A stretch of DNA of 32,000 bases, from assembly GCF_001412615.1 (NCBI RefSeq), contig NZ_CP013011.1, positions 1,500,001-1,532,000 on the forward strand, written 5' to 3'. Each line of letters starts with the position of its first letter. Position 1 is the first letter of the stretch. Positions 11,034-29,014 of this stretch are shown piece by piece. The DNA is from Pyrodictium delaneyi (GTDB taxonomy: Archaea; Thermoproteota; Thermoprotei_A; Sulfolobales; Pyrodictiaceae). The notes beneath the pieces are model-generated. The model was not told where the DNA came from and searched no databases. It worked only from the letters and a program-made list of their open reading frames with translations. The translations under genes and the position numbers were made by a program.

Positions 11034-11068
11034 CCAATTTTCAACACCATGGGGCAGGGTGATCACGC

Positions 11069-11863: not shown

Positions 11864-11900
11864 CGTGTTTTACTTACAATCATGAAGGGGGTGTTACATA

Positions 11901-12629: not shown

Positions 12630-12674
12630 GCTCTCGGCAATACATTGAAACAACTATGCTGCATATACATCCTC

Positions 12675-12696
12675 TATTCTCTTTTTCATATTCTTA
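12675..12696 (+). terminator. T-rich tract (TATTCTCTTTTTCATATTCTT) after fdnI; candidate archaeal terminator
   Basis: Contains T5 at 12682-12686 in a pyrimidine-rich context, 50 nt after the stop. It is followed by AT-rich promoter-like sequence before the next gene. Confidence 0.35.
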
Positions 12697-12741
12697 CCTT
12701 ATGTCGAAGTTTACATTAAAGTTGAGAGTAATATAGATAAG

Positions 12742-13575
12742 ATGGAGATGGTACTAGACATGACTGCAGGGGAAGTTACACCAGGCGCAGATGCCACTAA
12801 AGAATGTAGTCTAGCCACAACGCTTGTAGCAGGACTACGCATAGCAGCAGACTACAAGTACATAATAGAGGTTGACGACAAATACGTCGGCTCTATACAC
12901 ACGAGCCCGAACTACTTGGCTGACGCCATAGCAGGGCTAGCTCTACGCGATGGATTGGCTACCCTAGGCGATCATGTAGAGCTTGTCGAGGTCAAGCCGT
13001 TAGGCGATATGAGCTTCCTAGTTAGGGCTCGACTTGTCAGGGCTATGGCTACGAGCCTTCCCGATGAGAGACCGCTCGACTGGAACGTCATAGAAAGAGT
13101 CTATCGTGACCTGATAAGGTCTGTGCCTAAGGCTCAATGCCCCTTCGCCGTACACACTGTGGCCGTATACGGGATACCTCAAGACGGTGAACCGCGGAGG
13201 TTGATACTCGTCAGTGATGTCAGCCGCCATAGTGCAGTGCTGAAGGCTGCAGGTATGCTCTCGAGACTTGCTAGCTCTGGGAAACTACGTGGTCTTGCAT
13301 TGCTCGCTGTCTCCACAGGGAGGATATCCGGCGACGCTGTAGAGGCTCTGGCAAGGGCTGGAGTCCGGGTCATAGTTGCCAATCATCATCCGTTGTTGAG
13401 TGGCCTTGCAGCCGCTCTTCGCCATGGTGTTGCACTGGTGCTGCGTAGGCCCGATAGCCGAGGCCTCGCAGTCTACACGTCGCCGGAACTGGTAGTTAAT
13501 GCGCCCCTAGTGTTGTCGGTTAAGGAGGCAGGAGAGCCACCTTCTTATGCTGCCTCTATACTGCCGGTGTGCTGA
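12742..13575 (+). CDS. fdhD: FdhD-like formate dehydrogenase accessory protein (divergent; lacks the CxxC sulfur-relay loop)
   Basis: 277 aa. Blocks align by eye with E. coli FdhD: HTSPNYLADAIAGLALRDGL with ASPKDLEYFALGFSLSEGI; CPFAVHTVAVY with GCTHAAAWM; DVSRHSAVLKAAG with DVGRHVALDKLLG; STGRISGDAVEALARAGVRVIVA with [22 protein letters not shown]. Confidence 0.7.
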   Translation: MEMVLDMTAGEVTPGADATKECSLATTLVAGLRIAADYKYIIEVDDKYVGSIHTSPNYLADAIAGLALRDGLATLGDHVELVEVKPLGDMSFLVRARLVRAMATSLPDERPLDWNVIERVYRDLIRSVPKAQCPFAVHTVAVYGIPQDGEPRRLILVSDVSRHSAVLKAAGMLSRLASSGKLRGLALLAVSTGRISGDAVEALARAGVRVIVANHHPLLSGLAAALRHGVALVLRRPDSRGLAVYTSPELVVNAPLVLSVKEAGEPPSYAASILPVC

Positions 13576-13727
13576 ATCTTACCCTGACCCGGCATCAATT
13601 AATAACCCCGTGAATGCACACCATTCTTTATGACAGCCTAAGGGTGTGGCTATGAACACGTATATGACTTCGTGCTTTACTAGCCTAGAGGATTTGTTCT
13701 CTTGTACATAACGCTTAGACTATAGTT

Positions 13728-14666
13728 GTGAGGTTTCGTGTTATGGGTAGTGGGAAGCACGTACTTCTGCGCGACAGATTTCCCGAGATAAGAAGTTGGC
13801 TCGGGAAATTCTCTGAAGAGGACAAGAGGAACGAATCTTCTTACCGCATACTGGAGGCCCTATACGAGGTCCAGGCACGTATAGAGGAGGAGGCTCTGCG
13901 CCGCCTGGAGGAGGCTGGACTAATTGAGGAAGTAGCTAAGGCAGCACGGAAGATAGCATTTCAACGCGTACCTCTCATCATAATTCTTGGTGGTCTCCCT
14001 AAACCGCTTATGGATGAAGAATTTCTGCGCCGCTCGATGCTCGATATAATAGACGCTGTAGCAAGGGAGGGCTACAGTCTCAAAGGTGCTACAGCTTCCC
14101 TCCGCGATCCAGTGGAGAAGGCAGCATTAAGTATCTCTCAGCTCGTTGAAGAGCTATTGGAAGGTCGAGAAGATAGTATCCATGCATGGGCAGGCGCTGT
14201 CTCAGCTGACCGGGACCGTGTTCGGGCGCTGGCCCTTTGGTTAATCCAGCCCTTGCTTAGTGCACTACGCGTAGCTGCTAGCAACGCATTAGGTTGGGTT
14301 CGGGAATACTGGCAGCAAGGTCTTTGTCCAGTCTGTGGTTCTGTCACACGCGTCGGGTACATGAAGGGGGAAGGGAGGAAGCAGTTCCTCCGTTGCCAGG
14401 TCTGCGGAATGGAGTGGGTCTTTCCCCGCGCTCGATGTCCCTATTGTGGCACGGACAAGCCAGGCGATGTGGTATTCTATCAACCTCTGGAGTCTAGGCA
14501 ATGGTTACGGCTTTACTATTGCCGCCATTGCGGAGCCTACTGGAAGATAGTAGATGAGGAGGATGAAGCCGCCGCCAAGAGCGGGCTACCACCAAGAGAA
14601 CTTTACGACGTCTATACTTTTATCCTCGACTCTGTAGCCGAGGCAATGACCTCCAAGAGGCAGTAG
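13728..14666 (+). CDS. fdhE: FdhE formate dehydrogenase maturation protein (four CxxC rubredoxin-like knuckles)
   Basis: C-terminal region GLCPVCGS...FLRCQVCGMEW...RARCPYCG...YYCRHCGAYWK matches the FdhE pattern CPVCGS..RYL.C.LC..EW...R.KC..C......C..C..Y.K. A GTG is at 13728 and an ATG at 13743. Confidence 0.85.
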   Translation: MRFRVMGSGKHVLLRDRFPEIRSWLGKFSEEDKRNESSYRILEALYEVQARIEEEALRRLEEAGLIEEVAKAARKIAFQRVPLIIILGGLPKPLMDEEFLRRSMLDIIDAVAREGYSLKGATASLRDPVEKAALSISQLVEELLEGREDSIHAWAGAVSADRDRVRALALWLIQPLLSALRVAASNALGWVREYWQQGLCPVCGSVTRVGYMKGEGRKQFLRCQVCGMEWVFPRARCPYCGTDKPGDVVFYQPLESRQWLRLYYCRHCGAYWKIVDEEDEAAAKSGLPPRELYDVYTFILDSVAEAMTSKRQ

Positions 14667-14804
14667 GCCCTAGGGTGTACAAGTTGTCGGAAGATGGCGG
14701 CTTCGTAGAGGAAATGCCTGAAGACTTCTATGCTGCTGAAGAGCTTGAATTAGGCCGCTTGTCGAAATGCAAGAGTCTGGGGAAAAAACGGAAGAAAAAG
14801 ACCG

Positions 14805-15437
14805 TTGACAAGGTGCTCGGAGATAACGAGCAGAGGCAGTAAGAGCGATAGCAGGAGGAGAGTCTCGTTGCCGCTCCCAGGACTCTTGAATGCTGTAGCA
14901 TATGCGCCTAGACACCGTGACGAACTCTTGGGGATGTTAGAAGAGACTACGAATAAGATTGTAGAAGTAATGAAGACCACTATGCCACAGCATGCTATCA
15001 ACCTCTACACAATGTTAGCATCAGCCAAGGCATTGCCCGTAGCAGTAAAGGGAGGCCCGCCGCCGCTAAACCCGCTACAGTATGCCGACTTTGCTGCCGA
15101 TATCATAGCCCGGTTAGAGTCTACTGGTTTTTACGAGGAAGCTAGGCCCCTTCGACGCGCCCTCATGTCGGGAAAGCTACCCGTCTACGATCTTGCCCGT
15201 GGCTACTTGCTCGGAGACTTAGACTTTATAGTCTCGGTGTCAAGGGAGCTTGGTGCCGCCGAGTGGATTGTCGCATTCCTCGCCGCAGCAGTAGCTGCAG
15301 GCGCTGCCAGGGCTATACGGGCCGTGCTAGAATCTGATAGGAGCCTGCCGGCTCTAGGCCAGGATGCTACGTGCCCTGTGTGTGGTAGATCCTTGGAGAA
15401 TGGACGTTGTAGTTTCTGTCTCTACGCACAGAGGTAG
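14805..15437 (+). CDS. Hypothetical protein with a C-terminal CPVCG...CSFC zinc-ribbon; possible truncated FdhE-like paralogue
   Basis: The ORF-track start is TTG. A more plausible ATG at 14934 (MLEETTNKIV...) gives 167 aa. The body is helical and Ala-rich, ending in ATCPVCGRSLENGRCSFC. It follows fdhE on the same strand. Confidence 0.45.
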   Translation: MTRCSEITSRGSKSDSRRRVSLPLPGLLNAVAYAPRHRDELLGMLEETTNKIVEVMKTTMPQHAINLYTMLASAKALPVAVKGGPPPLNPLQYADFAADIIARLESTGFYEEARPLRRALMSGKLPVYDLARGYLLGDLDFIVSVSRELGAAEWIVAFLAAAVAAGAARAIRAVLESDRSLPALGQDATCPVCGRSLENGRCSFCLYAQR

Positions 15438-17107: not shown

Positions 17108-17866
17108 ATGGCTGCAGCAGACATCTGCAAGCTAGCAGAGCGGGGCCGCATCACATACTGCGAGAATCTAAGTTGGCGCGCACCAATCTACCGGGATCGT
17201 CTAGAGGCTGGCAAAGTGCTAGCCAGCATCCTTCCCATGCTGGATCTAAACATAAACGAGACAGTTGTATATGCCATTGCTACAGGAGGCATACCAGTAG
17301 CCGCTACAGTTGCACGTAGCCTAGGTCTCCCCCTTGATATAATCGTTGTCAAGAAGATCACATTTCCGTGGACTACAGAAGCAGGGTTCGGCGCTGTAGC
17401 TCCCAACAATACATACGCCTATGATGCAAAGATAGCCCACGTATACCTAGGCTATACAAAGGAGGAAGTAAAGGAGCTTGTAAAGACTACACACCATTAC
17501 GTGGTAGAGAGAACTTTACAACTTCGTGGAAGCCTTACTTACCCGAGACTTGATGACAAGACAGTGGTATTGATAGACGATGGAATAGCCACAGGCTATA
17601 CTATGATAGCAGGACTACGCTTTCTAAGACAACATGGTGCCAGAACGCTAATAGCTGCCGCGCCAACAGCTAGCATAGATGGTGTTGACCGCGTAGCAGG
17701 AGATGCTGAAAAGATTATTGTACCAAACCTGCGTAGCGATCCTAACTATTCAGTTGCCGACGCATACATAGAGTGGCACGATGTAAGCGACGAAGAGGCT
17801 ATCAAGTACCTCCAGTGGGGCCGCGGAGAACTCTCAGATTCCGGGAAAAACTCTATTCTAGCTTAG
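17108..17866 (+). CDS. Predicted phosphoribosyltransferase (COG1926-like)
   Basis: PRPP-binding loop VVLIDDGIATGYTM. N-terminal YRDRLEAGKVLASIL resembles the F.DR.eAG..LA signature of this family. Confidence 0.7.
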   Translation: MAAADICKLAERGRITYCENLSWRAPIYRDRLEAGKVLASILPMLDLNINETVVYAIATGGIPVAATVARSLGLPLDIIVVKKITFPWTTEAGFGAVAPNNTYAYDAKIAHVYLGYTKEEVKELVKTTHHYVVERTLQLRGSLTYPRLDDKTVVLIDDGIATGYTMIAGLRFLRQHGARTLIAAAPTASIDGVDRVAGDAEKIIVPNLRSDPNYSVADAYIEWHDVSDEEAIKYLQWGRGELSDSGKNSILA

Positions 17867-18740
17867 ATGATGCTAGCTTGGTGAGCAACGGCTTAGACAA
17901 CGCTGTAGCCAAGGCAAAGAACGAAAACCCGACTACTCCAGTCATAAGTCCAATCTTCTCTAGCATCATTGCTACAGCGAGTGAGGCCAGTGATAGTACA
18001 AGAGAGGCTATTTTAATCATTAGACTCGGTGCTTCGAGTATTTCTTCTACCCTCTTTATCCTGGCCAGTATGAGGCCTGCAGCTATCAAACCCGCATCTA
18101 TTCCCGTTAACCGGGCTGCAGCTCGATAAGTGGGACTAGCTACGAGGGCTGCAACTGCTAGCGGGAGCCCTACTACGCCTAACAGTAGCGGTACCCAGGC
18201 TATATCTCTCTTGACTAGTAGCTTGTACGCTGCTATTGACATCACCGTGCCGATTACTATGCCTCCTACTACGTCGCGAGGATAATGGACATGGAGAACT
18301 AGTCTCGATAGAGATACCGCCGCCGTATGTACTACACCTACAACAGCTAGCAACACACTGCGTGTATATAGAGCTACCATAGCCCAGAAAGCTGCACTAA
18401 GTGCTGCATGACCACTGGGAAATGCCGGGCCCGAGGCTTCCACTAGCCACGTTTCCATTGGGGGCCTAGGTAATCCAACGAACACTTTGAGAGCAACTAC
18501 TATACTAGAGACAAGTGCTAGGCCCGATACCAGTCTGACACCTAGCACACCACTGAGAAGCGCGTAGATGAGAATACCAACAAGCATGTAGATGGCCTCG
18601 TCGCCTAGGTATGTCACAGCTCTGCAGTAGTCTATGCTGCCAGATATACAAGTGATAAGCTCGAGTGAAGCACCCACCAAAAGGGCGAACTCTAGTAATC
18701 TGTGTTTGTCCATCAGCTTGTGCCCCTCCCTGTTTTCCAC
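17853..18740 (-). CDS. PAP2-family membrane phosphatase (polyprenyl-diphosphate phosphatase-like) with extra C-terminal TM helices
   Basis: Three PAP2 motifs: KVFVGLPRPP, FPSGHAA and SRLVLHVHYPRDVVGG. The likely true start is the ATG at 18713, which shares one nt with the upstream TGA (TGATG). The 3' end overlaps the convergent PRTase gene by 14 nt. Confidence 0.8.
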   Translation of the reverse strand: MENREGHKLMDKHRLLEFALLVGASLELITCISGSIDYCRAVTYLGDEAIYMLVGILIYALLSGVLGVRLVSGLALVSSIVVALKVFVGLPRPPMETWLVEASGPAFPSGHAALSAAFWAMVALYTRSVLLAVVGVVHTAAVSLSRLVLHVHYPRDVVGGIVIGTVMSIAAYKLLVKRDIAWVPLLLGVVGLPLAVAALVASPTYRAAARLTGIDAGLIAAGLILARIKRVEEILEAPSLMIKIASLVLSLASLAVAMMLEKIGLMTGVVGFSFFALATALSKPLLTKLASSKLE

Positions 18741-19729
18741 AACTTTTCGAGGCTCCTTGCTATTATCTCGAGCTGTATGTCGCTGGTTCCCTCAGCCGGC
18801 TCTAGTGCGTAGAGGTGGAGCAGAAGGTCAGTGAGACCCATACCTCTGCGTACTGCGTGACCGCCGAAAGTACGGAGAGCTGCGTCAGCCGCCGCTAGCC
18901 CCATTTCAACTGCGACATACTTGGCTGCACTTGTAAGCCCCCAGTCGACTCCACTACCGCTTTCGAGTACATCAGCTGCCTTTTCCACGAGTGCTTTTGC
19001 AGCCTCAAGTCCTGCGTAAGCTCGAGCAAGTCTGTGGCTTACAGCCTGGAACCTGTAGACGTCTCTCTCAAGTGCCCAGTCTAGGGCCTTTTCAAGCACC
19101 GTATTAGCAAGGCTTACAGCAAGTGCTGCAACGAGGACTCTGCTTTCAGCTAGAGACCGGAGTACTACACGATAAGGCTCCCGGCCTGGGCCAGCTATGA
19201 GCCGTGCTTCCACATTCTCTAGCCGGAGCCTTGCTATTCCACTACAGCTATAGGCCTCTAGATCCAGAGGTTCGGCGTGAAGCCCAGCCGCATTCGGCTC
19301 AACAAGGGCTAAGACGTGGCCGCCGTTGCCCTGAGCGAAAACGAGTATCGCTGAAGCATAGAGAGCATTCGTCGCGAAGACCTTCTCTCCAGTTATACTT
19401 ACCCTCCCATCATCCAGTATCTCGGCACGGGTCTCAACGCCCGCTAGATCCGAGCCTCCGCGAGGCTCAGTGAGTGCCGGGGATAGCAACCCCTCGGGGA
19501 CCTGAACACCGAGACCTTCTAGGATGCGGCGTGCTACACAATGGCTTACCAGGCTCATACCCGTGCATGGATCTATACGCGTCTCCATAACTCTACGGGC
19601 TAGCATGCCTAGGTTGCTACAGTCTCCTGCTAGCTCGAGAACACGTGTTACGAGATTATGCTGGCTAGTGCTCAAGACGCCGAGGCACCGGGGGTCTAAC
19701 ATCTCCATAGCGGGAGGCTTTAACTTCAC
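18713..19729 (-). CDS. Acyl-CoA dehydrogenase family protein (short N-terminal domain)
   Basis: ALTEPRGGSDLAGVETRAE..DG..ITGEKVFATN matches the ACAD middle domain. FQAVSHRLARAYAGLEAAKAL and TFGGHAV...EPAEGTSDIQLEIIARSL match the C-terminal domain, including the catalytic-Glu region. At 338 aa it is shorter than the usual ~380. It has a GTG start. Confidence 0.7.
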   Translation of the reverse strand: MKLKPPAMEMLDPRCLGVLSTSQHNLVTRVLELAGDCSNLGMLARRVMETRIDPCTGMSLVSHCVARRILEGLGVQVPEGLLSPALTEPRGGSDLAGVETRAEILDDGRVSITGEKVFATNALYASAILVFAQGNGGHVLALVEPNAAGLHAEPLDLEAYSCSGIARLRLENVEARLIAGPGREPYRVVLRSLAESRVLVAALAVSLANTVLEKALDWALERDVYRFQAVSHRLARAYAGLEAAKALVEKAADVLESGSGVDWGLTSAAKYVAVEMGLAAADAALRTFGGHAVRRGMGLTDLLLHLYALEPAEGTSDIQLEIIARSLEKLWKTGRGTS

Positions 19730-19886
19730 GGCTTACCTTTACTTGTTCATCTCGTTCTCCCTTTGGTACTGTTACATTGCCTCCTAAGGGCTTGATATGT
19801 ACAATCCATGTCACGCAGTCTACAGACTACCTGGGTCCATTACATCCGCTACATTGTAGCACGTGCTCAACAATGCATCTCGTAAT

Positions 19887-20285
19887 TCAGCGTTTTTCTG
19901 CTGCAAGTGGATCACCTATTAGGCTGGAACGGTTTGCTGTAGCCGGCGGCACGATGTTACTCGTTTTGTAGGCGTGTCGTGGACAGATGTCTACGCAGTG
20001 GTAACAGAACATACAGAGATCGTAATGCACTACCGGATATCGACGTGGCCTCTTAGCATTTTCCTGGCCTGGTAGTAGCTTCATCTCTATCGCTCCCGGC
20101 GGGCACTCTATAGCGCATAGACTACAGCCTATACACTTCTCCACATCAACCACGTGGAGGCCGCGATACCCACCACTAGGAGTTGGGCCGGTTTTTAGGC
20201 CGTATTCTATTGTGGCAGGCCGCCTAGCCAAGTTTGATACGAGTTCACTTAGCATGATAAGTATACGCGGCTTCACAACTTCCAC
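19887..20285 (-). CDS. nuoI: 2x[4Fe-4S] ferredoxin subunit of the membrane-bound hydrogenase/complex-I-like enzyme (NuoI/MbhN-like)
   Basis: CIGCSLCAIECPPGAI and CMFCYHCVDICPRHA, separated by a spacer as in NuoI. It is the last gene of the operon. It has a GTG start. Confidence 0.85.
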   Translation of the reverse strand: MEVVKPRILIMLSELVSNLARRPATIEYGLKTGPTPSGGYRGLHVVDVEKCIGCSLCAIECPPGAIEMKLLPGQENAKRPRRYPVVHYDLCMFCYHCVDICPRHAYKTSNIVPPATANRSSLIGDPLAAEKR

Positions 20286-20290
20286 CCCTT

Positions 20291-21469
20291 CTATTGATCT
20301 GCCCGCCGACGAGCTAGTTGACGTAAGTTCTCTAGACGTTCGCGCCCAGTACGTTCATCAACTACTATAACGCGCTCCATGCATGATATGCAGGGATCAA
20401 GACTTGCTAGTATGACCGGTATATCCGCCAATGTGGCACCTTGGTAGGCTACGAGACTGTTCAGTATGTTGGGGATACTCGGCGTCCTTATCTTTACTCT
20501 ATAAGGCTTAGTGCCGCCCCGACTAACAACATGGTATAGGAGTTCACCACGTGGAGCCTCAACTCGTGATATTGCCTCACCCTCACGGAACCGGCGAGGC
20601 GGAGTCTTCAGACTGTTAATTGGACCGCTTGGCAGTTTTTCTAGCACTTGACGTATAATGTTTATAGACTCTAACGCCTCCTCGAACCGGACCAGCATAC
20701 GGGCGAGTGCATCGCCCTCACTACGTCTAATTACTTGGAAGTCTAGCTCCCCGTACCAAGCATAAGGATCATCGCGTCTGACATCGATATCTACGCCGGA
20801 GCCACGAGCTGTTGGCCCGACAAGTCCATGACTTACGGCCACACTGTACGGTATTACCCCTATGCCTTCAAGCCTACGGCGGAGCAACCTATCGCTTGTA
20901 TAGACTTCCATATAGTATTTTATCCGCTGTTCGAGAATATCCATGCTACGTCTTATCTTCTCTGCTACTTCAGGACTTAGGTCTCGACGAACGCCTCCTG
21001 GCCATACATAATCGGCTATGACTCGGTTTCCTGTGAGCAGCTCCTTTAGGTGCATTACCTTCTCGCGATCCCTCATTATCAGCATGAAGAGGCTCTCAAA
21101 TCCAGCTATCTCTGCAACCACGGCTGCTAGGAGCATGTGACTATGAAGCCTCTCGAGCTCCATTGCTAGGACTCGGAGAGCTTGAGCGCGAGGCGGCGGC
21201 TCGATACCATTTATCTCTTCGATGGCCTGGACATAGCAGTTAGAATGCATCATGTTGCATATACCGCAGACACGTGTCACTATATAGAGGGTTTTTAGGA
21301 ACGTATTGCTCTCAGCGAGCTTCTCTATCCCACGATGGTTATAGCCCGTAACTACCTCTACCCCGACTACGTCTTCACCGTCAACGCGTACACGGAGCAT
21401 AATGGGTTCGTGTAGTGCAGGATGCTGAGGCCCAATAGACACTTCTATTACCGGCATCCCCGTTATCAC
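20291..21469 (-). CDS. nuoD: Group-4 [NiFe]-hydrogenase large subunit (NuoD/MbhL/EchE-like) with an intact Ni-Fe ligand set
   Basis: L1 motif RVCGICNMMH (Cys68 at 21268-21266, Cys71 at 21259-21257). L2 motif DPCISCMER (Cys360 at 20392-20390, Cys363 at 20383-20381). A 26-aa tail VIVVDERTG... follows it. Also GPQHPALHEP and EAPRGEL blocks. GTGA overlap with the upstream gene. Confidence 0.9.
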   Translation of the reverse strand: MITGMPVIEVSIGPQHPALHEPIMLRVRVDGEDVVGVEVVTGYNHRGIEKLAESNTFLKTLYIVTRVCGICNMMHSNCYVQAIEEINGIEPPPRAQALRVLAMELERLHSHMLLAAVVAEIAGFESLFMLIMRDREKVMHLKELLTGNRVIADYVWPGGVRRDLSPEVAEKIRRSMDILEQRIKYYMEVYTSDRLLRRRLEGIGVIPYSVAVSHGLVGPTARGSGVDIDVRRDDPYAWYGELDFQVIRRSEGDALARMLVRFEEALESINIIRQVLEKLPSGPINSLKTPPRRFREGEAISRVEAPRGELLYHVVSRGGTKPYRVKIRTPSIPNILNSLVAYQGATLADIPVILASLDPCISCMERVIVVDERTGRERLENLRQLARRRADQ

Positions 21470-21906
21470 CTCTTATTCCAGTCCTTGCGTAACGGATATT
21501 CTCCAGCTACATCTGGCGGTGTGAAGAACCCTAAGCGGAGACTCTCATTACCCTCAAAGACTACGCCAAAGAGGTCGTAGACCTCTTGTTCATAGGGCAC
21601 TGCAGCGGGGAGTAACAGTGCCAAGCTTGGTGCTCTTGGCTGGCTTCGCGGTACCCGCGTCTTTAGCGTGAGTAGGCTCTTCTCCGGGATAATCCAGAAC
21701 ACATAGTCTAGCTCTATACTGTCCTCTTCAGGGAGATCTATGGCAGTTATCGCTGAGAGGTAAACTCCACGAGGGTAGGCCTCTAGCAAGCTTTTAACTA
21801 CTCCTGGCAGTTTCCAGGGATCATCAATACGTACTTCTAGACGTCGTTGCTTCTTTTCCACAATCTCTACTTTACTGTTCTTCAGCCACAGTTTTAGCTG
21901 CTTCAA
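21466..21906 (-). CDS. nuoC: NuoC/MbhK-like 30-kDa-type subunit
   Basis: 146 aa. YEQEVYDLFGVVFEGN and a R(K)DW-type C-terminus (YPLRKDW) are typical of NuoC/HycE-N/MbhK. It sits between the small and large subunits. Confidence 0.8.
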   Translation of the reverse strand: MKQLKLWLKNSKVEIVEKKQRRLEVRIDDPWKLPGVVKSLLEAYPRGVYLSAITAIDLPEEDSIELDYVFWIIPEKSLLTLKTRVPRSQPRAPSLALLLPAAVPYEQEVYDLFGVVFEGNESLRLGFFTPPDVAGEYPLRKDWNKR

Positions 21907-22405
21907 TTCTGTCAGCCTCCTCTCGGATACTCTTAAGGAGCCTAACTATGGCCTGGAGTATCGCGTCAGGACGCGGCGGGCATCCGGGAATATAGAGATC
22001 CACCGGCACGACGTTGTCGGCTCCACCAACTACACTGTAGCTATTGCGGAACACATTGCCAGAGATAGCACATGTACCAACTGCAACCACGTGTTTTGGG
22101 TCAGGTGTCTGTTCGTAGAGACGACGAAGTCTCTCAGCAGACTTCTTGGTTAGTGCACCCGTCACAATGATTATGTCGGCATGCCGAGGGTTCGGGGCCA
22201 GTCTTATACCGAAGCGTTCTGGATCGTAGAGGGGTGTTAGGGCCGCAAGAACCTCTATGTCACAGCCGTTGCATGCGCCGGTGTTAAAGTGGAGTAACCA
22301 GGGTGAACGTGAGAGCATTCTTAAGGTGAAAGAACTCCCACGATGCTTCACATTTTGCAAGGGGATATACGCCTCCGCCAAATAGAGTATATAGCTACGA
22401 AACAT
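21872..22405 (-). CDS. nuoB: Group-4 hydrogenase small subunit (NuoB/MbhJ-like), [4Fe-4S] N2-type cluster
   Basis: FNTGACNGCDIE (hydrogenase-type CxxC rather than the complex-I CC), GTCAISG and IPGCPPRP. The start is either 22405 (a TATA-like box lies ~32 nt upstream) or the internal ATG at 22318 (MLSRSPWLLHFNTG). Confidence 0.85.
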   Translation of the reverse strand: MFRSYILYLAEAYIPLQNVKHRGSSFTLRMLSRSPWLLHFNTGACNGCDIEVLAALTPLYDPERFGIRLAPNPRHADIIIVTGALTKKSAERLRRLYEQTPDPKHVVAVGTCAISGNVFRNSYSVVGGADNVVPVDLYIPGCPPRPDAILQAIVRLLKSIREEADRIEAAKTVAEEQ

Positions 22406-22479: not shown

Positions 22480-23880
22480 CTAGCGGATTAGACTGACTAT
22501 ACTGTCCACGATGGGGCCCGGCAATACACCTAGAGCTATTGCGGCCGCTGCTAGGATGAGGAGTGGTACAAGAAGCCTAGACGGAGCCTCAGAAGGCAGT
22601 GTACGAGGAACCGTTACCGACGGATGCCAGAATACTCGTAGCCAGAACCTAAGCGCATAGGCTGCAGAGGATAATACAGCAAGTGCTAGCGCAGCGACTG
22701 CTGCTATGCCGTAGACCCGCCCTACCCCTAGGACTATGAGTAGCTCACCTGGGAACATTGCAAAGGGCGGTGCCCCGGCCAGACTCATGGCTGCTACGAA
22801 GGCTGCGAAGGCTGTGACGGGCATGCTGCGGGCGAAAACTCCCATGCTGCGTATGTCGTCGCTTCCGCTCTGCTTCTCGAGCACTCCTGCTACGAGGAAG
22901 AAGAGGGGCTTTACGATGCCGTGTGCCAGGGCTGCTAGTACTCCACCAGCGGCCGCCAGGGGATGGCCAGCGGCAAGCCCGGCGTAGATTATGCCGGAGT
23001 GCCCAATGCTGCTGTAGGAGGCTATGAAGCCTAACCGGTTAGCTGAGAGGGCTCGGAGGGCTCCCACTATTGCCGAGGTTATGCCCAGCCACATCGCGGC
23101 CTCTAGCATGGCTGTGGTTTGGTGGGGCCAGTGGAATCCTGTCGTGAACCTGTACATTCCGTAGGCGCCGATGCTTGTGACCACGCCTGCGAGTAAGCCT
23201 GCCGCGAATGGGGGCACTGAGGTGTAGGTACGTGGGAGCCATGTGTGGAATGGGAAGACACCGAGTTTTATTGCAAAAGCTATAAGTGCCAATGGTAGCG
23301 CTATTGTTGATAGGCTAGCATCCACGACATTGCCTCCGAAGACCGGGGCATTGGCTGCTAGTAGGGCGCCTACCGCTACGAGAAGTAGCAGGGAGCCTGC
23401 ATGCATGTATATGAAGAATTCTGGGGCTCTTCTAGGGCTCCAGAGCCAAACTAGCACCGTGGACACTATGAGTACTAGTTCCCAGAACACATAGAAGAGC
23501 GGCAAGCTATAGGCGTAGACGAGCCCAATAACCGAAGCATGTATAGCAGTTACAACTATCTCAAAGACTGCCTCCCCTCCTCTACATGTTACGCCAGCTC
23601 TGCCTGCATATACTATGACTGTTATCGCTACTAGGGCAGAGAGGGCTGCGAAGAGCTTCGAGACAGTGTCTAGCCCCATACACACTGGAGCGTTGACGAC
23701 AGCTAACCATGAACGACATACAGCGTCGCCGTTGGCAAGCAGCGTAATAATAGCGGACACTGTTATCGAGATTATTGAGGCTGCCCTCCTACCAGCTAGG
23801 ACTGCTGCAGCACCTAATCCAAGCACTATTAGCGACGTCGCATACGCTACTGGTACGCCGAGCACGTTAGCCACCTCCAA
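22480..23880 (-). CDS. nuoN: Antiporter-like subunit (NuoN/NuoM/MrpD family)
   Basis: 466 aa, about 14 TM helices. FAIKLGVFPFHTWLPRTY matches the K..g..P.H.WLPdA signature. It overlaps the upstream gene by 14 nt. Confidence 0.8.
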   Translation of the reverse strand: MEVANVLGVPVAYATSLIVLGLGAAAVLAGRRAASIISITVSAIITLLANGDAVCRSWLAVVNAPVCMGLDTVSKLFAALSALVAITVIVYAGRAGVTCRGGEAVFEIVVTAIHASVIGLVYAYSLPLFYVFWELVLIVSTVLVWLWSPRRAPEFFIYMHAGSLLLLVAVGALLAANAPVFGGNVVDASLSTIALPLALIAFAIKLGVFPFHTWLPRTYTSVPPFAAGLLAGVVTSIGAYGMYRFTTGFHWPHQTTAMLEAAMWLGITSAIVGALRALSANRLGFIASYSSIGHSGIIYAGLAAGHPLAAAGGVLAALAHGIVKPLFFLVAGVLEKQSGSDDIRSMGVFARSMPVTAFAAFVAAMSLAGAPPFAMFPGELLIVLGVGRVYGIAAVAALALAVLSSAAYALRFWLRVFWHPSVTVPRTLPSEAPSRLLVPLLILAAAAIALGVLPGPIVDSIVSLIR

Positions 23881-25168
23881 GCATGGGGACTAGGCCGGGA
23901 TAGACTCCCAGCACGAGTAGAAGCAGCGAATACGCAAGGAGAGGGAGCCAGGGGACGTTGACGCCATGGGATACTTGATATCCACCCATTATCAAGTAAC
24001 GGAAGATGTAGACCGCTGATACTAGGAAGAAGATTGCCGATACTACTGCTAGCCAAGTGTATCCAGCTGCAGCGAATGCTGCTACTACTGAGAGTTTCGC
24101 GGCAAACCCATAGAGTGGCGGCGTCCCGGCTAGGCTGAGTAACCCCGTCACTTGTGCTATTTTGCCGATGCTTGTCTTTTCGTAACGGTGAGCAGTTATT
24201 ACCAGGGCTATGGACATGTTGCTAGCTGTTATGAAGTATATCGGGACTAGAGGGTCGCGTATACCAGATAGCGCGTAGACGACTGCGAGCAGGACAGTGT
24301 AGCCAGCGTCGCTCACCATACTGTAGCCTATCATGCGACGTAGCTCCTTCTGAGCTAGAGCAGAGAATTCGCCCACAACCATGCTCGCCATTGCTAGGAG
24401 GACAAGGAGCGCCGCGATTATTGGGCCGAGCAAGACTCCCGAGGAGGCTATCAGCTTGAAGAACACCAATAATACTGGAGCATCTACAAGTAGGATGGCA
24501 GTAACCACTCCGAGCAAGTGAGCGCCTTGGACTACATCGGGCAGCCACATATAGAATGGTGCAAGTCCGGCCTCAAGCGCCAGCCCCGCTGTGAGGAAGA
24601 CGAGGCCAAGGAGCACAGGGAGAGTCGCCCATGACACCCCTCCCAGGGGTGCTTCGGTAAAGCTGTGAAAGCCCTGACTGTAGAGTAGCCCCATGCCAAC
24701 AATTATGAGGGCTGTCGCCAGTATCGACGAGTAAAGGTACTTCACTGCAACTTCTCCACTACGCCGGCCTCCAAGACTATAGAGACCGGCTAAGGCGGCG
24801 GCAGCCGTCTCTATACCGGCGAGCAAGGTTAGTAGGCTAGCCGAGTAGAGCACGAGGAACCCGCCTAGAACGGCTAAGATAACTAGCGGTGCCCTCACCT
24901 TATCTAGCTCATCTACTAGACTGGCTAGGGCTAGTATCTCTGCCAGTAGGAGGAGTACCGCCATAGCATTATACTCCGTCGTCACGTATAGGATGTTTAG
25001 GCCAGCATACCTTACCATACCCTGGGGCAATACCCAAACAATTACCATCATGTAGATCATTGTGGCTAGTGTCGTGGCTGCTGCTGCACGGCGCGGAAGG
25101 ACAGCAGCGATAGCTGCGGCGGCTAGAGGAACGCCGGCTACCAGGGTTAGTAGCTGGTATACGTCCAT
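23867..25168 (-). CDS. nuoM: Antiporter-like subunit (NuoM/NuoN/MrpD family), divergent at conserved charged residues
   Basis: 433 aa and polytopic. LAGIETAAA is the TM5 Glu block. LALEAGLAPFYMWLPDVVQGA aligns with the NuoN block FK...PFH.W.PDVYQGA, but has Glu199 and Tyr206 where Lys and His are expected. Confidence 0.75.
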   Translation of the reverse strand: MDVYQLLTLVAGVPLAAAAIAAVLPRRAAAATTLATMIYMMVIVWVLPQGMVRYAGLNILYVTTEYNAMAVLLLLAEILALASLVDELDKVRAPLVILAVLGGFLVLYSASLLTLLAGIETAAAALAGLYSLGGRRSGEVAVKYLYSSILATALIIVGMGLLYSQGFHSFTEAPLGGVSWATLPVLLGLVFLTAGLALEAGLAPFYMWLPDVVQGAHLLGVVTAILLVDAPVLLVFFKLIASSGVLLGPIIAALLVLLAMASMVVGEFSALAQKELRRMIGYSMVSDAGYTVLLAVVYALSGIRDPLVPIYFITASNMSIALVITAHRYEKTSIGKIAQVTGLLSLAGTPPLYGFAAKLSVVAAFAAAGYTWLAVVSAIFFLVSAVYIFRYLIMGGYQVSHGVNVPWLPLLAYSLLLLVLGVYPGLVPMLGGG

Positions 25169-25170
25169 GG

Positions 25171-27018
25171 CTAACCACCCATACTTACCAGGGCGACTAT
25201 GATGAGTAGAACGAGACCGGCTAGATAGACTGCATAGTAGTAGCTCAGCTTACCACCGTGTAAGCTGCGTAGCATGCCTCCAAGCTGTAACGAGAACGAA
25301 GTAGCAGCATCAACAACGGCGTCAACGATTTCTACGAGACCTCTAGCCGATAGATTCACAGCAAACAGTATCGAGGGCGCTATTATCCTTGTGTAGATCC
25401 TGTCTATGTAGAAGCCCTCTAGTGCTGCACGCTGTAGAGCCGCTAGCCTAAGGGTTGCCACTTTACGGGTGTACAACAAGAATGCCGTCCCAAGACCAGC
25501 AGCTGCAGCAGCGAGGCTAGCAGCTACCGCTAATGGCCCAGCTTCGCTCGGCTGGAAGGGTGGTACGACTAGGAGGGGCGAGACTAGAGTCATCACTATC
25601 AAGAATAGAAGTGGAGCAGCCATAAATGCTGGTATCTCCTCTACCCTTATCTCCTTGTACCTTGGCTCTGCGAAGACGAGATAGTAGACGAGCTTCACCG
25701 AATAGAACGCCGTGGCCACCGACGCTGCTAGGAGAACTAGTGCCACGAGAGGCTCAGTTGATAAGGCTACTCCTATTATCGCCTCTTTACTCCATGCACC
25801 GTTGAAAGGCGGTATACCGGCTAGCGCTGCCGCCCCTGCTACTAGGCTTGCAGCGAGGAGTGGACTACGCCGGGCAGCACCTGCCACATAGCGCATATCC
25901 CTTGCAATCTCTGGACCAAAGATGGGCTCAAACTCGTGTATAACGACACCTACGGCTAGGAATAGAAGGGCCTTGAACACGGCGTGACTAGCTACATGCT
26001 CTAACACTGCTACGAGACCCTCTACGCCTACTCTCCACGTGAGCCCTAACGCTGCAAACATGAAACCTAGCTGGCTTATAGTCGAGTAGGCTAGCAGCCT
26101 CTTTGCGTCATACTGTGCTGCTGCCGAGACGGCTGCATAAAGGGCCGTAGCTGCACCCACAAGCACTACCAGCTGCATGAAGCTCTGGGGCAGAGCGACG
26201 CTACCGCCTATGAGGGCAAGAGAGGCAATCCTTAGAACAAGGTAGATACCCGCCTTGACCATTGTGGCCGCGTGTATCAGCGCCGAGACAGGAGTAGGGC
26301 CCTCCATGGCGTCGGGGAGCCAGACATGCAGCGGCAGCTGCGCACTCTTCGCCACCGCCCCGACAAAGGCTAGCAAGAGGAACAACTTTAGAGCAGCCAG
26401 ACCAGATGCTGCGAGTACGGGGTACTCGACCGAGCCGAGAATAGTATAGACATAGACTATGCCTACTAGGAGGGCTGTGTCGCCTATCCTTGTGGTCAGG
26501 AAAGCCTTGACGCCAGCTGCTGAGGCGCGTGGCGAGTAGTAATGTGCTATCAATGCAAAGCTACAGAGCCCGACCATCTCCCAGAACATGTAAAGGGCTA
26601 CTAGGCTACCAGTCAGCACAAGACCCTCCATTGCGCCGAGGAAGAGTACCAGAAGGCTATAGTACCGCGAGTACCCCGGATCCTCAGCCATGTAGCTGTA
26701 CGAGTACAATATCACTAGGAGGCCCACGAGGCCTACTATCAGCGAGAAGAGCGCCGCGAGCCCGTCGATATAGAGCGAGAGGCTAAACCCACCACCCGGA
26801 ACCAAGGGGAGACTAGGCCCTTCTATATAGAAGGCTGTTTCGGGAGCCTTGCTGTAGATTAGCAGTGCGAGCATCAGTACAGTAGAGCCCGTGGCTAGCG
26901 CGAGGCCCCATGCAGCGCGGCGGCCGAGGAAGCGTCCCGCCAGGGCTACGACTGGGGATGCTGCGAGAGGTGTCAGTATAATCGCGTAGCCTAGAGTAGT
27001 CAAGCTAGCCGTTTCCAT
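25171..27018 (-). CDS. nuoL: NuoL/MrpA-like antiporter subunit with a C-terminal lateral-helix extension
   Basis: 615 aa. AVAKSAQLPLHVWLPDAMEGPTPVSALIHAATMVKAGIYLVLR is the canonical NuoL/MrpA block. The C-terminal GFYIDRIY...VEIVDAVVDAA amphipathic stretch plus a final TM helix resembles the NuoL HL helix and TM16. Confidence 0.88.
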   Translation of the reverse strand: METASLTTLGYAIILTPLAASPVVALAGRFLGRRAAWGLALATGSTVLMLALLIYSKAPETAFYIEGPSLPLVPGGGFSLSLYIDGLAALFSLIVGLVGLLVILYSYSYMAEDPGYSRYYSLLVLFLGAMEGLVLTGSLVALYMFWEMVGLCSFALIAHYYSPRASAAGVKAFLTTRIGDTALLVGIVYVYTILGSVEYPVLAASGLAALKLFLLLAFVGAVAKSAQLPLHVWLPDAMEGPTPVSALIHAATMVKAGIYLVLRIASLALIGGSVALPQSFMQLVVLVGAATALYAAVSAAAQYDAKRLLAYSTISQLGFMFAALGLTWRVGVEGLVAVLEHVASHAVFKALLFLAVGVVIHEFEPIFGPEIARDMRYVAGAARRSPLLAASLVAGAAALAGIPPFNGAWSKEAIIGVALSTEPLVALVLLAASVATAFYSVKLVYYLVFAEPRYKEIRVEEIPAFMAAPLLFLIVMTLVSPLLVVPPFQPSEAGPLAVAASLAAAAAGLGTAFLLYTRKVATLRLAALQRAALEGFYIDRIYTRIIAPSILFAVNLSARGLVEIVDAVVDAATSFSLQLGGMLRSLHGGKLSYYYAVYLAGLVLLIIVALVSMGG

Positions 27019-27021
27019 AGT

Positions 27022-27315
27022 CTACCCCCTTAGTTCGTCTAACTCGTCCACACTCCTAGCCCCATGGAGCCTTGAGGCGCGGAGGGCGAGCGCAGCTGCT
27101 AGGGCCATTATACCGGTGTCGAGAACTAGTATGAAGAGGTAGAAGCCTAGGCTACCACCCCACATGGCGAGGGATGCTGCTGCAGAAGCCGACACAAGTT
27201 CGAGGCCGACCAGTACGCGGAGAAAGTTAGAGTACCGAGTGAGCATGTAGAGGCCTGCAGAGGCTATAGCTGCTAGTGCTATTGAGTAGAATATGCTAGT
27301 CTCCACCGTCTTCAC
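27022..27315 (-). CDS. nuoK: NuoK-like small membrane subunit
   Basis: 97 aa with three TM helices. LVGLELVSASAAASLA resembles the NuoK L.slEim.na block with its membrane Glu. It sits between the J-like and L-like genes. Confidence 0.7.
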   Translation of the reverse strand: MKTVETSIFYSIALAAIASAGLYMLTRYSNFLRVLVGLELVSASAAASLAMWGGSLGFYLFILVLDTGIMALAAALALRASRLHGARSVDELDELRG

Positions 27316-27730
27316 CTCCCGCCACGACTCTTAACGCTAGCAACACTGAGGCTAGCGGAGCAGATGCCAGGGCTACTGCTAGAGGAGCCCATTCCTCTGC
27401 ACTGAGCTCCCGGGGCTGCTGTATATGAGAGCCAGCGATGGCTAGGGCTACGAGCACCACGAGTGCACCTATAGCCCCCATACCCGGGACGACGCCCCGC
27501 TTCGAGCCGCCCAACTCGGGAGCCAGGAAGCCTGCAGCTGCTAGAAACCCGGCTGCGAGTGAGAGCTGTACAACGGCTGCAACAACTTCGCCCATATCAA
27601 TAAACATTAACGCGAGGAGCACCAGAGCTGCGGTGGAGGAGAGTAACACTCGCTCGTCTCGCCCCGTGGTGGCAGCATAGAACGCCGCTACAGCCGCCGC
27701 AGCTGCTAGTACTCCTGCGAAGATACTCAC
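27296..27730 (-). CDS. nuoJ: NuoJ-like membrane subunit
   Basis: 144 aa and hydrophobic. GEVVAAVVQLSLAAGFL loosely matches the NuoJ F.a..Q..vY.GA block. The call rests largely on the canonical H-J-K-L gene order. Confidence 0.55.
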   Translation of the reverse strand: MSIFAGVLAAAAAVAAFYAATTGRDERVLLSSTAALVLLALMFIDMGEVVAAVVQLSLAAGFLAAAGFLAPELGGSKRGVVPGMGAIGALVVLVALAIAGSHIQQPRELSAEEWAPLAVALASAPLASVLLALRVVAGGEDGGD

Positions 27731-27737
27731 TCTGTTA

Positions 27738-28694
27738 TCACCCCTTAACTATTAGTGCTAGAGCCGCAATTATGAAGGAGCATGGCACTATGGCAGTCCA
27801 TGAGGCTCTCCCCACGTCTACGAGCCGTAGCCTCGGAGCTGCTGCATCTACTAGTGTAGCAGCAATGGCAACTGCTAGCCCTGTCCCCAGGAGCGCAAGG
27901 AGCCCTGCTATGCCGCTCCAGGGCGGCGCGAGGAACAGCGTCGTGTAGTAGTATAGCGAGACAGTCTCGTGGATACGATGCGTCAAGTGTGCAAACGCGA
28001 GGCGACGACCACTCATATCCGCCATTAAGCCACCTGCAATCTCGGTCTCAGCCTCTGCCACGCTAAACGGGTCCTTGCCTGCCTCGGCTAGGATCAGCAC
28101 GAAGCCTAGCACAGCCCCCGCTAGCCACAACGGCAAGAACACCGGCTCAGCAGCTAGGCTGCTCCACAGTGTCCTCCTTATCTCCGCGAGCGAGAGCGAG
28201 CCTGTAACAGCATAGACTATACCAAGCAGGGAGAGGAGAGCAACTTCATAGCTTGCTAGGAGCCCTAGCAGACGGAACCCACCAATGACACTATAAGGGC
28301 TATGAGTCGAGAAGGCTGCCAGGTAGAGGAGGCCAAGCGAGAGGGTTAAACACGCCGCAACGAGCACTGCATCGCCATGAAAGCTAAAGCCTATAGCACC
28401 GCTCCAGGGGATGAAAAGCGAGGCAAACGCGGCTAGGCTTAGACTCCATATCAGCGCTGCTGGCACTGCAACCGGGTCCTGGCTCCGGGGCGCAAGATCC
28501 TCCTTACCCAGCAGCTTCAAGAGGTCTATGAGCGGCTGTAGTAAACCTCCTAATCCAGTATAGCTAGGACCTATACGGCTCTGCAGCCTGGCTACAACTT
28601 TACGCTCAACAGCTTCGAGCAACAGCGCTAGCGCTACCACGAACGTTAGGCCAGGGTATACAGTAGCCTTCACGACCAGGTCTAGGGGATTCAT
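27738..28694 (-). CDS. nuoH: NuoH/MbhM-like membrane subunit
   Basis: ERKVVARLQSRIGPSYTGLGGLLQPLIDLLKLLGKED matches the NuoH ERK..a..Q.R.GPN..G..GLLQP.aD..KL..KE block. PFSVAEAETEIAGG matches PFD.pEaEsEL. ATGA overlap with the upstream gene. Confidence 0.88.
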   Translation of the reverse strand: MNPLDLVVKATVYPGLTFVVALALLLEAVERKVVARLQSRIGPSYTGLGGLLQPLIDLLKLLGKEDLAPRSQDPVAVPAALIWSLSLAAFASLFIPWSGAIGFSFHGDAVLVAACLTLSLGLLYLAAFSTHSPYSVIGGFRLLGLLASYEVALLSLLGIVYAVTGSLSLAEIRRTLWSSLAAEPVFLPLWLAGAVLGFVLILAEAGKDPFSVAEAETEIAGGLMADMSGRRLAFAHLTHRIHETVSLYYYTTLFLAPPWSGIAGLLALLGTGLAVAIAATLVDAAAPRLRLVDVGRASWTAIVPCSFIIAALALIVKG

Positions 28695-29014
28695 AACGTG
28701 TGTCTCCTCTTGAGTATACTACGGGCAGTTATGGCCGAGAAGACGCCGGCAACCATAAAGAGGAGAGCCGATACGTTGCTAGAACCACCAGCTAGTAGTA
28801 CTGCTACGGGCACTGCTTCCACCGCTGCAAAGAGGAGTAGCAGCCAAGGGTATGGCGGCGATGCTTCTCGAAGAGGCTCTGTCTTTTCTCCACACATGTA
28901 GGGCTCTACTGCTTCTCCTTCTCTACGTGGAGCTGGTGCCAAACTTTTTGATGCAAGATAGTAGCTCGCCGATACAACCATTATTAGTACAAATGCAATG
29001 ACCAGCTCTATCAT
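28691..29014 (-). CDS. nuoA: NuoA-like small membrane subunit; first gene of the operon
   Basis: 107 aa with three TM helices. EPYMCGEKTEP matches the NuoA PYECG..P loop, followed by LLLFAAVEAVPV (compare F.lFDvE). Confidence 0.65.
   Translation of the reverse strand: MIELVIAFVLIMVVSASYYLASKSLAPAPRREGEAVEPYMCGEKTEPLREASPPYPWLLLLFAAVEAVPVAVLLAGGSSNVSALLFMVAGVFSAITARSILKRRHTL

Follow-up and report, generated by a model that had tools for sequence, protein, structure and literature searches.

Altered channel charges in two antiporter-like subunits of a complex I-like [NiFe] hydrogenase operon in Pyrodictium delaneyi

Can the membrane arm of a complex I-like enzyme work when lysines of its central relay have been exchanged for carboxylates, and what would such an exchange be good for? 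The question is raised by a 32,000-nucleotide stretch of the Pyrodictium delaneyi genome (contig NZ_CP013011.1, positions 1,500,001 to 1,532,000; "the window" below, in whose numbering coordinates are given unless they belong to a related locus). The region at 22480-25168 consists of two minus-strand genes, one for an N-type (NuoN/ND2-type) antiporter-like subunit of 433 aa (23867-25168) and one for an M-type (NuoM/ND4-type) subunit of 466 aa (22480-23880), belonging to an operon whose motifs mark it as that of an 11-subunit membrane-bound [NiFe] hydrogenase of Fpo/Nuo architecture, and not of a quinone reductase. A first-pass annotation of the window, made by eye, had proposed that two of its three antiporter-like subunits have altered channel charges, and these two do. 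The complex itself has been reported before: Loh et al. (2021; PMC7886697) call the P. delaneyi cluster "Hfo-like", an 11-subunit [NiFe] hydrogenase of Fpo architecture without the Mbh Na+ module, in a study in which the antiporter-like subunits are not analysed and these residues are not discussed. For the residue pattern of the N-type and M-type subunits, no description was found in the open-access literature. The reading favored here, which we hold at about even weight for and against, is that both modules are functional and under selection, N as a carboxylate relay extending the acidic E-channel and M as a MrpD-type relay, both suiting the low-energy ferredoxin/H2 couple.

To our knowledge, the pair formed by a Glu on transmembrane helix 5 (TM5) and a Lys on TM7, together with the central Lys of TM8, are taken to be the invariant working parts of every antiporter-like subunit in the domino-effect and electrostatic-wave models. 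In the N-type subunit the pair is absent, E120 (24811-24809) being retained as the TM5 Glu and TM7 carrying a second Glu. When the sequence was aligned by phmmer with solved NuoN/ND2 chains, LALEAGLAPFYMWLPDV fell against GLSFKVSAVPFHMWTPDV of Paracoccus NuoN, with the corresponding parts of E. coli NuoN, of cyanobacterial NdhB and of plant Nad2 aligned likewise, so that Glu199 (codon GAG at 24574-24572) stands at the position of the TM7 Lys and Tyr206 (TAT at 24553-24551) at that of the TM7b His. The central TM8 Lys is likewise missing: Asp229 (GAT at 24484-24482) lies in mid-TM8, 18 residues past the Asp of the PD motif, an ungapped spacing equal to that of the TM8 Lys in canonical NuoN. These three assignments are those of the first-pass annotation, and a check of the codons agrees with them. 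It had not stated that the TM12 Lys, K358 (24097-24095), is retained along with the TM5 Glu, nor that an additional invariant acidic residue, E267 (24370-24368), occupies a TM9 position where canonical NuoN has Asn, Ser or Ala. The Glu/Lys of TM6 (E139, K143) are also kept. The buried relay of this subunit is Glu(TM5)-Glu(TM7)-Asp(TM8)-Lys(TM12) with a further Glu on TM9, as against the canonical Glu-Lys-Lys-Lys.

Could the pattern be an artefact of alignment register? One phmmer alignment to E. coli NuoN does have a gap near D229. Against this, four independent alignments concur and none puts a canonical Lys at TM7 of the N-type; the PFxxWxPD anchor leads without a gap to the TM8 position at +18; and the helix boundaries of an AlphaFold2 (AF2) model (mean predicted local distance difference test score, pLDDT, 91.5; predicted TM-score 0.92) put the residues at canonical places. 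That model keeps both discontinuous helices, with E199 in the final turn of TM7a (helix 183-200, break 201-207), D229 in the middle of TM8 (218-242) and K358, beyond the second break (348-352), at the start of TM12b. Its best structural matches are E. coli NuoN chains (TM-score 0.85), followed by Nqo14 and Paracoccus NuoN. A misregister is hardly credible, and was rejected on the concordant alignments, the spacing and the helix boundaries. In profile terms NuoN (TIGR01770) is the best-matching model, at 124 bits against a curated cutoff of 332.6, and NuoM (TIGR01972) is that of the M-type, at 206 bits against 263.8; since both scores lie below their cutoffs, the two proteins are divergent members of the NuoN and NuoM families.

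Are the substitutions peculiar to one genome? It had been left to comparison with orthologues whether they are conserved, and they are: Glu at TM7 and Asp at TM8 occur in all 14 members of the N-type clade, and E120, E199, D229, E267 and K358 are all invariant in the 14 aligned sequences, down to 27% identity, with the same charge pattern in all 8 Hfo-like loci. Among the nearest 143 representatives outside the clade, drawn from a library of 1.84 billion proteins, TM7 has Lys in 137 and Glu in 6, and TM8 has Lys in 137. Four NuoN-like proteins outside the clade (P0315, P0351, P0378, P0387) have the TM7 Glu but keep Lys or Glu at TM8.

The signature is also rare. A word-indexed search of 5.8 billion proteins returned only seven close N-type relatives, at 45-94% identity, the next matches being bacterial NuoN at about 30%, and a profile search of the 1.84-billion-protein library gave five high-scoring clusters at 50% identity (677-216 bits); more distant representatives with the signature are P0296, P0297, P0299 and P0420. 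Named members of the clade come from P. delaneyi, P. abyssi, a Pyrodictium sp. metagenome-assembled genome (MAG), a Desulfurococcus sp. MAG and a Thermoproteales MAG. In a metagenome scan with the N-type profile, using a permissive pattern, 79 of 80 loci had ordinary NuoN and only one (L091) was of the Glu/Asp type; no D-type subunit was found near the N-type matches of these metagenome loci, probably because in standard operons the distance from nuoN to nuoD exceeds 10 kb.

The N-type is at the same time the least conserved and fastest-evolving of the large subunits, with 58, 48, 48, 40 and 32% identity in five loci as compared with 89-61% for D. In the locus of P. abyssi type (L083), whose N protein clusters at 90% identity with a P. 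abyssi protein, the corresponding values against the window are 89% for D, 81% for B, 64% for M, 59% for A and 58% for N. Because this subunit evolves fastest, the invariance of its buried charges is the more telling, and the altered charges are not decay but mark the family as a whole and are under selection.

The same data bear on the possibility that the N-type, and perhaps also the M-type, has degenerated into a spacer that transports nothing and is there only to hold NuoL and its lateral helix in place. Low overall conservation, the score far under the NuoN cutoff (124 as against 332.6 bits), the inability of a low-energy reaction to fund four pump sites, and the fact that HycC of the E. 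coli formate hydrogenlyase (FHL) also lacks the TM7 Lys would all suit such a role. Buried charges are costly, however, and in a spacer should vanish or vary, whereas here five are invariant down to the lowest identities; the broken helices TM7 and TM12 are retained in the AF2 model; and the substitution is always to Glu or Asp, never to a hydrophobic residue like the Leu of HycC. We regard a spacer as improbable. Of the three meanings suggested in the first-pass annotation (another transported ion, another direction of coupling, a purely structural role), the last is thus disfavored by five invariant buried charges at 27-60% identity and seems unlikely; different coupling fits the hydrogenase context, and a different ion in the N-type module is possible, as discussed below.

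The M-type subunit is less altered than had been claimed. It does keep the TM7 Lys (K205, 23268-23266) and its His (H212), and does have Arg after WLP (R217, 23232-23230) and Ser236 (23175-23173) in place of the TM8 Lys of the LLKxxxYG block, all as noted by eye; what had been missed is a Lys on TM11, in the motif AHGIVKPLFFL (H320-x3-K324, 22923-22909). The subunit also has the TM5 Glu (E134, 23481-23479) and the TM12 Glu (E379, 22746-22744), so that both the TM5/TM7 ion pair and the TM12 carboxylate of the canonical NuoM set are present, and E134, K205 and E379 occur in all Hfo-like loci. Among the 120 best database matches, the TM8 Lys is found in 0 of 8 clade members as against 112 of 112 other NuoM matches, and the TM11 Lys in 8 of 8 as against 1 of 112. 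At the TM8 Lys position other Hfo-like M-types have Ser, Asn, Gly, Val, Ala or Glu, and the pattern holds in the distant loci L086 and L088 too; replacement of WLPD (by WLPR, WLPV, WLPM or WLPA) is confined to the close clade, these two distant loci keeping WLPD.

The HxxxK spacing on TM11 equals that in the NuoL-type subunit of the window (SHAVFKALLFL) and in the MbhH-like subunits of related hydrogenases. An AF2 model (pLDDT 95.2) puts S236 in mid-TM8, H320 and K324 in mid-TM11 and E379 on TM12b, and its best structural matches are NuoM/ND4 (TM-score 0.88) and MrpD (0.82-0.85). In MrpD the relevant TM11 residues are D333 and K337, in place of which a single His stands in Nqo13 and Nqo14 (Steiner and Sazanov, PMC7419157). 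Since the TM8 Lys is absent and the TM11 HxxxK present, the M-type is of combined nature: a NuoM chassis with a central relay of MrpD/NuoL type, whose central Lys, like that of MrpD and NuoL, appears to stand on TM11 and not on TM8. We do not regard it as a broken module.

Only the third antiporter-like subunit, of NuoL/ND5 type (615 aa, 25171-27018, minus strand; Pfam Proton_antipo_N and Proton_antipo_M; NCBIfam NuoL, 423 bits), has the full canonical set, as first proposed: E147, D180, K224, H249, K255, H345, K349, K411 and E412 were all found at the codon level, and the motifs are kept in 7 loci. It aligns to Nqo12 over residues 73-606, including the C-terminal lateral-helix region, and has the Glu(TM5)/Lys(TM7) pair, the TM8 His, the TM11 His/Lys and the TM12 Lys expected of NuoL/ND5. 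Its HAATMVKAG motif contains both a TM8 His (H249) and a TM8 Lys (K255), a combination that is the state of MrpA, NuoL keeping only the His (PMC7419157); the first-pass assignment of this motif to the MrpA type agrees with that paper.

The NuoK/ND4L-like subunit (97 aa, 27022-27315, minus strand; Pfam Oxidored_q2) was aligned by phmmer to E. coli NuoK (3rko_K), where its E39 corresponds to E36, the first Glu of the E-channel. There is no Glu at the position of E72, and the second carboxylate is displaced to D66, about 1.5 helical turns earlier. The cation ligands of Mrp and MBH complexes (His37/His40 or Asp37/His41 of MrpC/MbhG) are absent, Ala being aligned at both His positions, and the operon has no MrpF- or MrpG-like gene and hence lacks the Asp of MrpF/MbhB.

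What enzyme does this arm serve? The D subunit (392 aa, 20291-21469, minus strand; Pfam Complex1_49kDa and NiFeSe_Hases), which is 100% identical to a P. delaneyi protein, carries the motifs RVCGICNMMH (L1) and DPCISCMER (L2), the latter followed by a C-terminal extension of 26 residues, of the type removed by a protease. Its CGICNMMH and DPCISCMER fit the definitions C[GS][ILV]C[AGNS]xxH for L1 and [DE][PL]Cx[AGST]Cx[DE][RL] for L2 taken from PMC7886697. Four Cys residues (C68, C71, C360, C363) are invariant in 14 homologues, and the [NiFe] motifs are present in D of 6 of 7 related loci. The B subunit, homologous to hydrogenase small subunits and to NuoB (177 aa, 21872-22405, minus strand; Pfam Oxidored_q6), keeps GACNGCDIE, G[TA]CA[IA]SG and PGCPP in 6 loci, and its CNGCDIE is a CxxC of hydrogenase type; NuoB has a tandem-Cys motif at this position. 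Because D and B keep the [NiFe] motifs, the C-terminal extension and the CxxC, the complex is best described as a hydrogenase and not a quinone reductase.

This differs from the public record. In GenBank the operon genes are annotated as Nuo subunits or NADH-ubiquinone oxidoreductase chains, and in the genome paper the operon is a second Nuo complex, a separate cluster elsewhere consisting of Nuo subunits A-D and H-N (PMC5556600). The best NCBIfam matches of D are, moreover, NuoD (358 bits, cutoff 360) and FpoD. Might it then be an ordinary second copy of complex I, a ferredoxin- or NADH:quinone oxidoreductase in which the substitutions have drifted neutrally? All four Cys ligands of the Ni-Fe site and the cleavable extension are conserved, and the substitutions are invariant, not drifting; the quinone-ligand Tyr position of NuoD falls within the Cys-Gly-x-Cys motif of D. 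Genes for a HycI-like protease and for HypD also adjoin the operons of relatives: the former lies directly downstream in L083 (14193-14666) and upstream in L088 (5448-5933), the latter beside the partial locus L086 (3100-3423). An ordinary complex I is very improbable in the face of these features. In the window itself tblastn found no HycI anywhere, and the I gene and the gene that follows it lie only 158 bp apart (19729-19887). The Hfo-like large subunit has been described as related, or sister, to subgroup 4g-6 of the [NiFe] hydrogenases (PMC7886697).

How might a carboxylate relay work in such an enzyme? The chain of canonical complex I starts at the carboxylates of NuoH, NuoA and NuoK (the E-channel) and passes through the Glu/Lys, Lys and Lys of N and the Glu/Lys, Lys and Glu of M to L, and the number of antiporter-like subunits has been tied to the available redox energy (PMC10212512, also the source of the canonical residue definitions). 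Here the axis would run from E39 of K through E120/E199, D229 and K358 of N, and E134/K205, H320/K324 and E379 of M, into L. The N module would be a carboxylate continuation of the acidic E-channel (NuoH, NuoA and E39 of NuoK) in which the first Lys comes only at TM12, and it would hand protons to K358 and then on to the still competent M and L. Carboxylates are able to pass protons on just as lysines are, the TM12 Glu of NuoM in canonical complex I being an example. Loss of the Glu/Lys ion-pair switch, with a shift in resting charge of about -2, would retune pKa values and coupling, probably with fewer ions translocated for every 2 electrons. Selection has conserved the fold, the breaks in the helices and a complete complement of buried ionisable residues; we infer a hydrophilic axis that is continuous and still in use.

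The energy available is small. With H+/H2 at an E0' of about -414 mV and ferredoxin at about -450 to -500 mV, the reaction yields about 8-17 kJ per 2 electrons, a span equivalent to about one ion against 150-180 mV; from NADH to quinone the yield is about 77 kJ, enough for 4 H+. On these textbook values a three-module arm working at complex I stoichiometry would be impossible when H2 is formed and wasteful when it is consumed. Fewer ions per 2 electrons would for that reason suit the small energy span of ferredoxin/H2. As to direction, P. delaneyi couples H2 oxidation to the reduction of ferrihydrite or nitrate (PMC8105010), and since it oxidizes H2, H2-dependent ferredoxin reduction is the expected reaction; an ion-gradient-driven form of that reaction has been proposed by Loh et al. 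for Bathyarchaeia (PMC7886697). The P. delaneyi complex probably runs as an ion-gradient-driven H2:ferredoxin oxidoreductase, both the direction and the electron partner being what we infer here.

The acidic cluster of the N-type admits another interpretation, in which E120, E199, D229 and E267, with neighboring Ser, Thr and Asn residues, form a binding and translocation site for Na+ or another cation, and the arm is Na+-coupled without the Mrp small-subunit module. The four carboxylates are invariant, with conserved polar motifs nearby (GxET in TM5, TASNxS in TM11). E120 and E199 lie at the interface of NuoK and N, the place equivalent to the "double cavity" of Mrp and MBH, which uses the TM5 Glu of MrpD (PMC7419157); Hfo-type operons have no MbhABCF Na+ module, and the nearest relatives of D are Mbh-type in gene order (PMC7886697). 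Pyrodictium is also marine. Yet the NuoK-like subunit has the NuoK-type Glu (E39) and not the His37/His40 of MrpC, and carrying protons is an ordinary function of buried carboxylates too, as in the E-channel and in the TM12 Glu of NuoM. We consider a Na+-coupled arm of this kind unlikely, although the least unlikely of the alternatives, and the more specific version of it, in which the N-type is a Na+-translocating module with a Glu-Glu-Asp(-Glu) site at the NuoK interface replacing the Lys relay, a shade less likely again.

The preferred reading, a carboxylate relay in N and a MrpD-type relay in M of a working hydrogenase, has several points to contend with. The three or four buried carboxylates could equally bind a cation. 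That the N-type stands proximally, beside NuoK, is taken from homology, the gene order being L-N-M. Membrane subunits evolve fast, which makes some relaxation of constraint possible. Finally, the D subunit of the Desulfurococcus sp. MAG (GCA_026626905.1; locus L081, D at 13652-14827) has RVFGICNISH, with Phe for the first Ni-ligand Cys and an intact L2; this may reflect an error in sequencing, or a hydrogenase in the course of losing its Ni, and hydrogenase activity may consequently not be universal in the clade.

The operon as a whole consists of 11 genes without gaps on the minus strand, from 29014 down to 19887, in the order A-H-J-K-L-N-M-B-C-D-I. The same order is found in L081, L083, L084 and L088, and from J onward in L085, whose contig ends before A and H. 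The order L-N-M differs from the usual nuoL-M-N, and the genes for N and M share 14 nt (23867-23880). Nine of the 11 subunits are named by Pfam or NCBIfam. The first gene encodes a NuoA/ND3-like protein of 107 aa (28691-29014), assigned by position and motif: it has no Pfam match, but shares with 5 orthologues the loop motif PYMCGE and the conserved Glu66 of VExVP, and gives full-length but weak matches (E 0.8-5) to ND3 chains in a profile search of the PDB. It is followed by a NuoH/ND1-like membrane anchor (318 aa, 27738-28694; Pfam NADHdh, 191 bits; NCBIfam NuoH, 122 bits) and by a putative NuoJ-like protein (144 aa, 27296-27730), for which there was nothing in Pfam and nothing significant in the profile search of the PDB; its name comes from position only, position and length being kept across 6 operons. 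After the K and L genes come the N-type and M-type genes, both with Pfam Proton_antipo_M matches and the latter registered as Pdsh_06650; after the B gene, a NuoC-like protein (146 aa, 21466-21906; Pfam Complex1_30kDa); and, beyond D, as last gene, a NuoI-like 2x[4Fe-4S] subunit (132 aa, 19887-20285; Pfam Fer4 families). Neither NuoEFG, FpoF/O nor the MbhABCF Na+ module is present in the operon, which contains only these 11 genes, and the flanking genes are unrelated.

On the minus strand after the operon (17853-19729) are an acyl-CoA-dehydrogenase-like gene (338 aa, without a match to the N-terminal domain) and one for a PAP2 phosphatase-like membrane protein, a pair that also follows the operon in L083 (14712-16555). 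On the plus strand, the segment at 7239-14666 is a cluster for a membrane-bound molybdopterin oxidoreductase, with an unusually long catalytic subunit (1264 aa) bearing a twin-arginine-like leader, a 4x[4Fe-4S] subunit, a cytochrome b561-type subunit, and FdhD-like and FdhE-like genes; this may be the formate dehydrogenase cluster of the genome paper, although no formate dehydrogenase activity was measured there. Also on the plus strand are a homologue of the RuBisCO large subunit (10-1347, 445 aa) with no adjacent small subunit, probably an archaeal form III enzyme, and a secreted protein of 819 aa (1439-3898) with a peptidase C25 (gingipain-like) domain, an N-terminal signal sequence and a C-terminal membrane anchor.

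What does the altered module add to the understanding of complex I-type arms? The N-type is a natural, conserved charge reversal at exactly the sites of the TM5/TM7 pair and the central TM8 Lys, in the proximal module of an otherwise full complex I arm with a canonical NuoL. It could serve as a test object for two questions: can the relay work with carboxylates, and does resting charge set stoichiometry? It also suggests how an ancestral low-energy hydrogenase could have carried a three-module arm without paying for four protons. If the Na+ reading were true, a complex I-type arm would handle Na+ alone, an unrecognised solution between Mrp/MBH and complex I. More practically, these P. delaneyi genes, publicly annotated as NADH-ubiquinone oxidoreductase chains, are given a corrected assignment.

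Among known systems, the complex is that of the Hfo group of PMC7886697, related to HydDB group 4g: the same P. delaneyi cluster, with 11 subunits and the L1/L2 motifs and without NuoEFG, FpoFO or MbhABCF. There is no difference at the level of the complex, and the charge pattern of the antiporter-like subunits is an addition. In a D-subunit profile scan of a genome collection, the matches listed comprised only Mbh-type and Ech-type operons, which served as outgroup, with no Pyrodictium genome and no other Hfo-type operon among them; in the same matches the nearest relatives of D, at 55-62% identity, were Mbh-type group 4g hydrogenases of Desulfurococcales and Sulfolobales. These, like the MBH of Pyrococcus furiosus, are also ferredoxin-linked [NiFe] hydrogenases. 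Their operons differ in having a single MbhH-like subunit, in which the TM7, TM8, TM11 and TM12 Lys are mostly kept, and no triplet of N, M and L; they carry Mrp-type small subunits, and their gene order is B-C-D-I, MbhH-like, then MbhM-like.

A precedent is HycC of E. coli FHL, a low-energy group 4 [NiFe] hydrogenase: in this antiporter-like subunit too the TM5/TM7 Glu-Lys pair is broken, Glu135 being kept and Leu208 standing for the TM7 Lys; it has been read as a conduit that leads substrate protons into the E-channel (PMC9474812). Its TM11 bears a His/His/Lys set and its TM12 a Glu. It differs from the N-type in being the sole antiporter-like subunit of FHL, rotated by 180 degrees relative to complex I, in the hydrophobic nature of its TM7 residue and in keeping the TM8 Lys239.

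The N-type itself is closest in sequence and structure to NuoN/ND2/Nqo14, sharing the 14-helix fold, the broken TM7 and TM12, the TM5 Glu, the TM6 Glu/Lys and the TM12 Lys; it differs in Glu199 for the TM7 Lys, Asp229 for the TM8 Lys and Glu267 in TM9, and the TM7b His of NuoN, Tyr in the window, is kept as His in some relatives. The M-type resembles NuoM/ND4/Nqo13, its best structural matches, in the TM5 Glu, TM7 Lys, TM7b His and TM12 Glu, and resembles MrpD (D333/K337) and NuoL (HxxxK) in its TM11 Lys; unlike NuoM and MrpD, both of which have a TM8 Lys, it has none.

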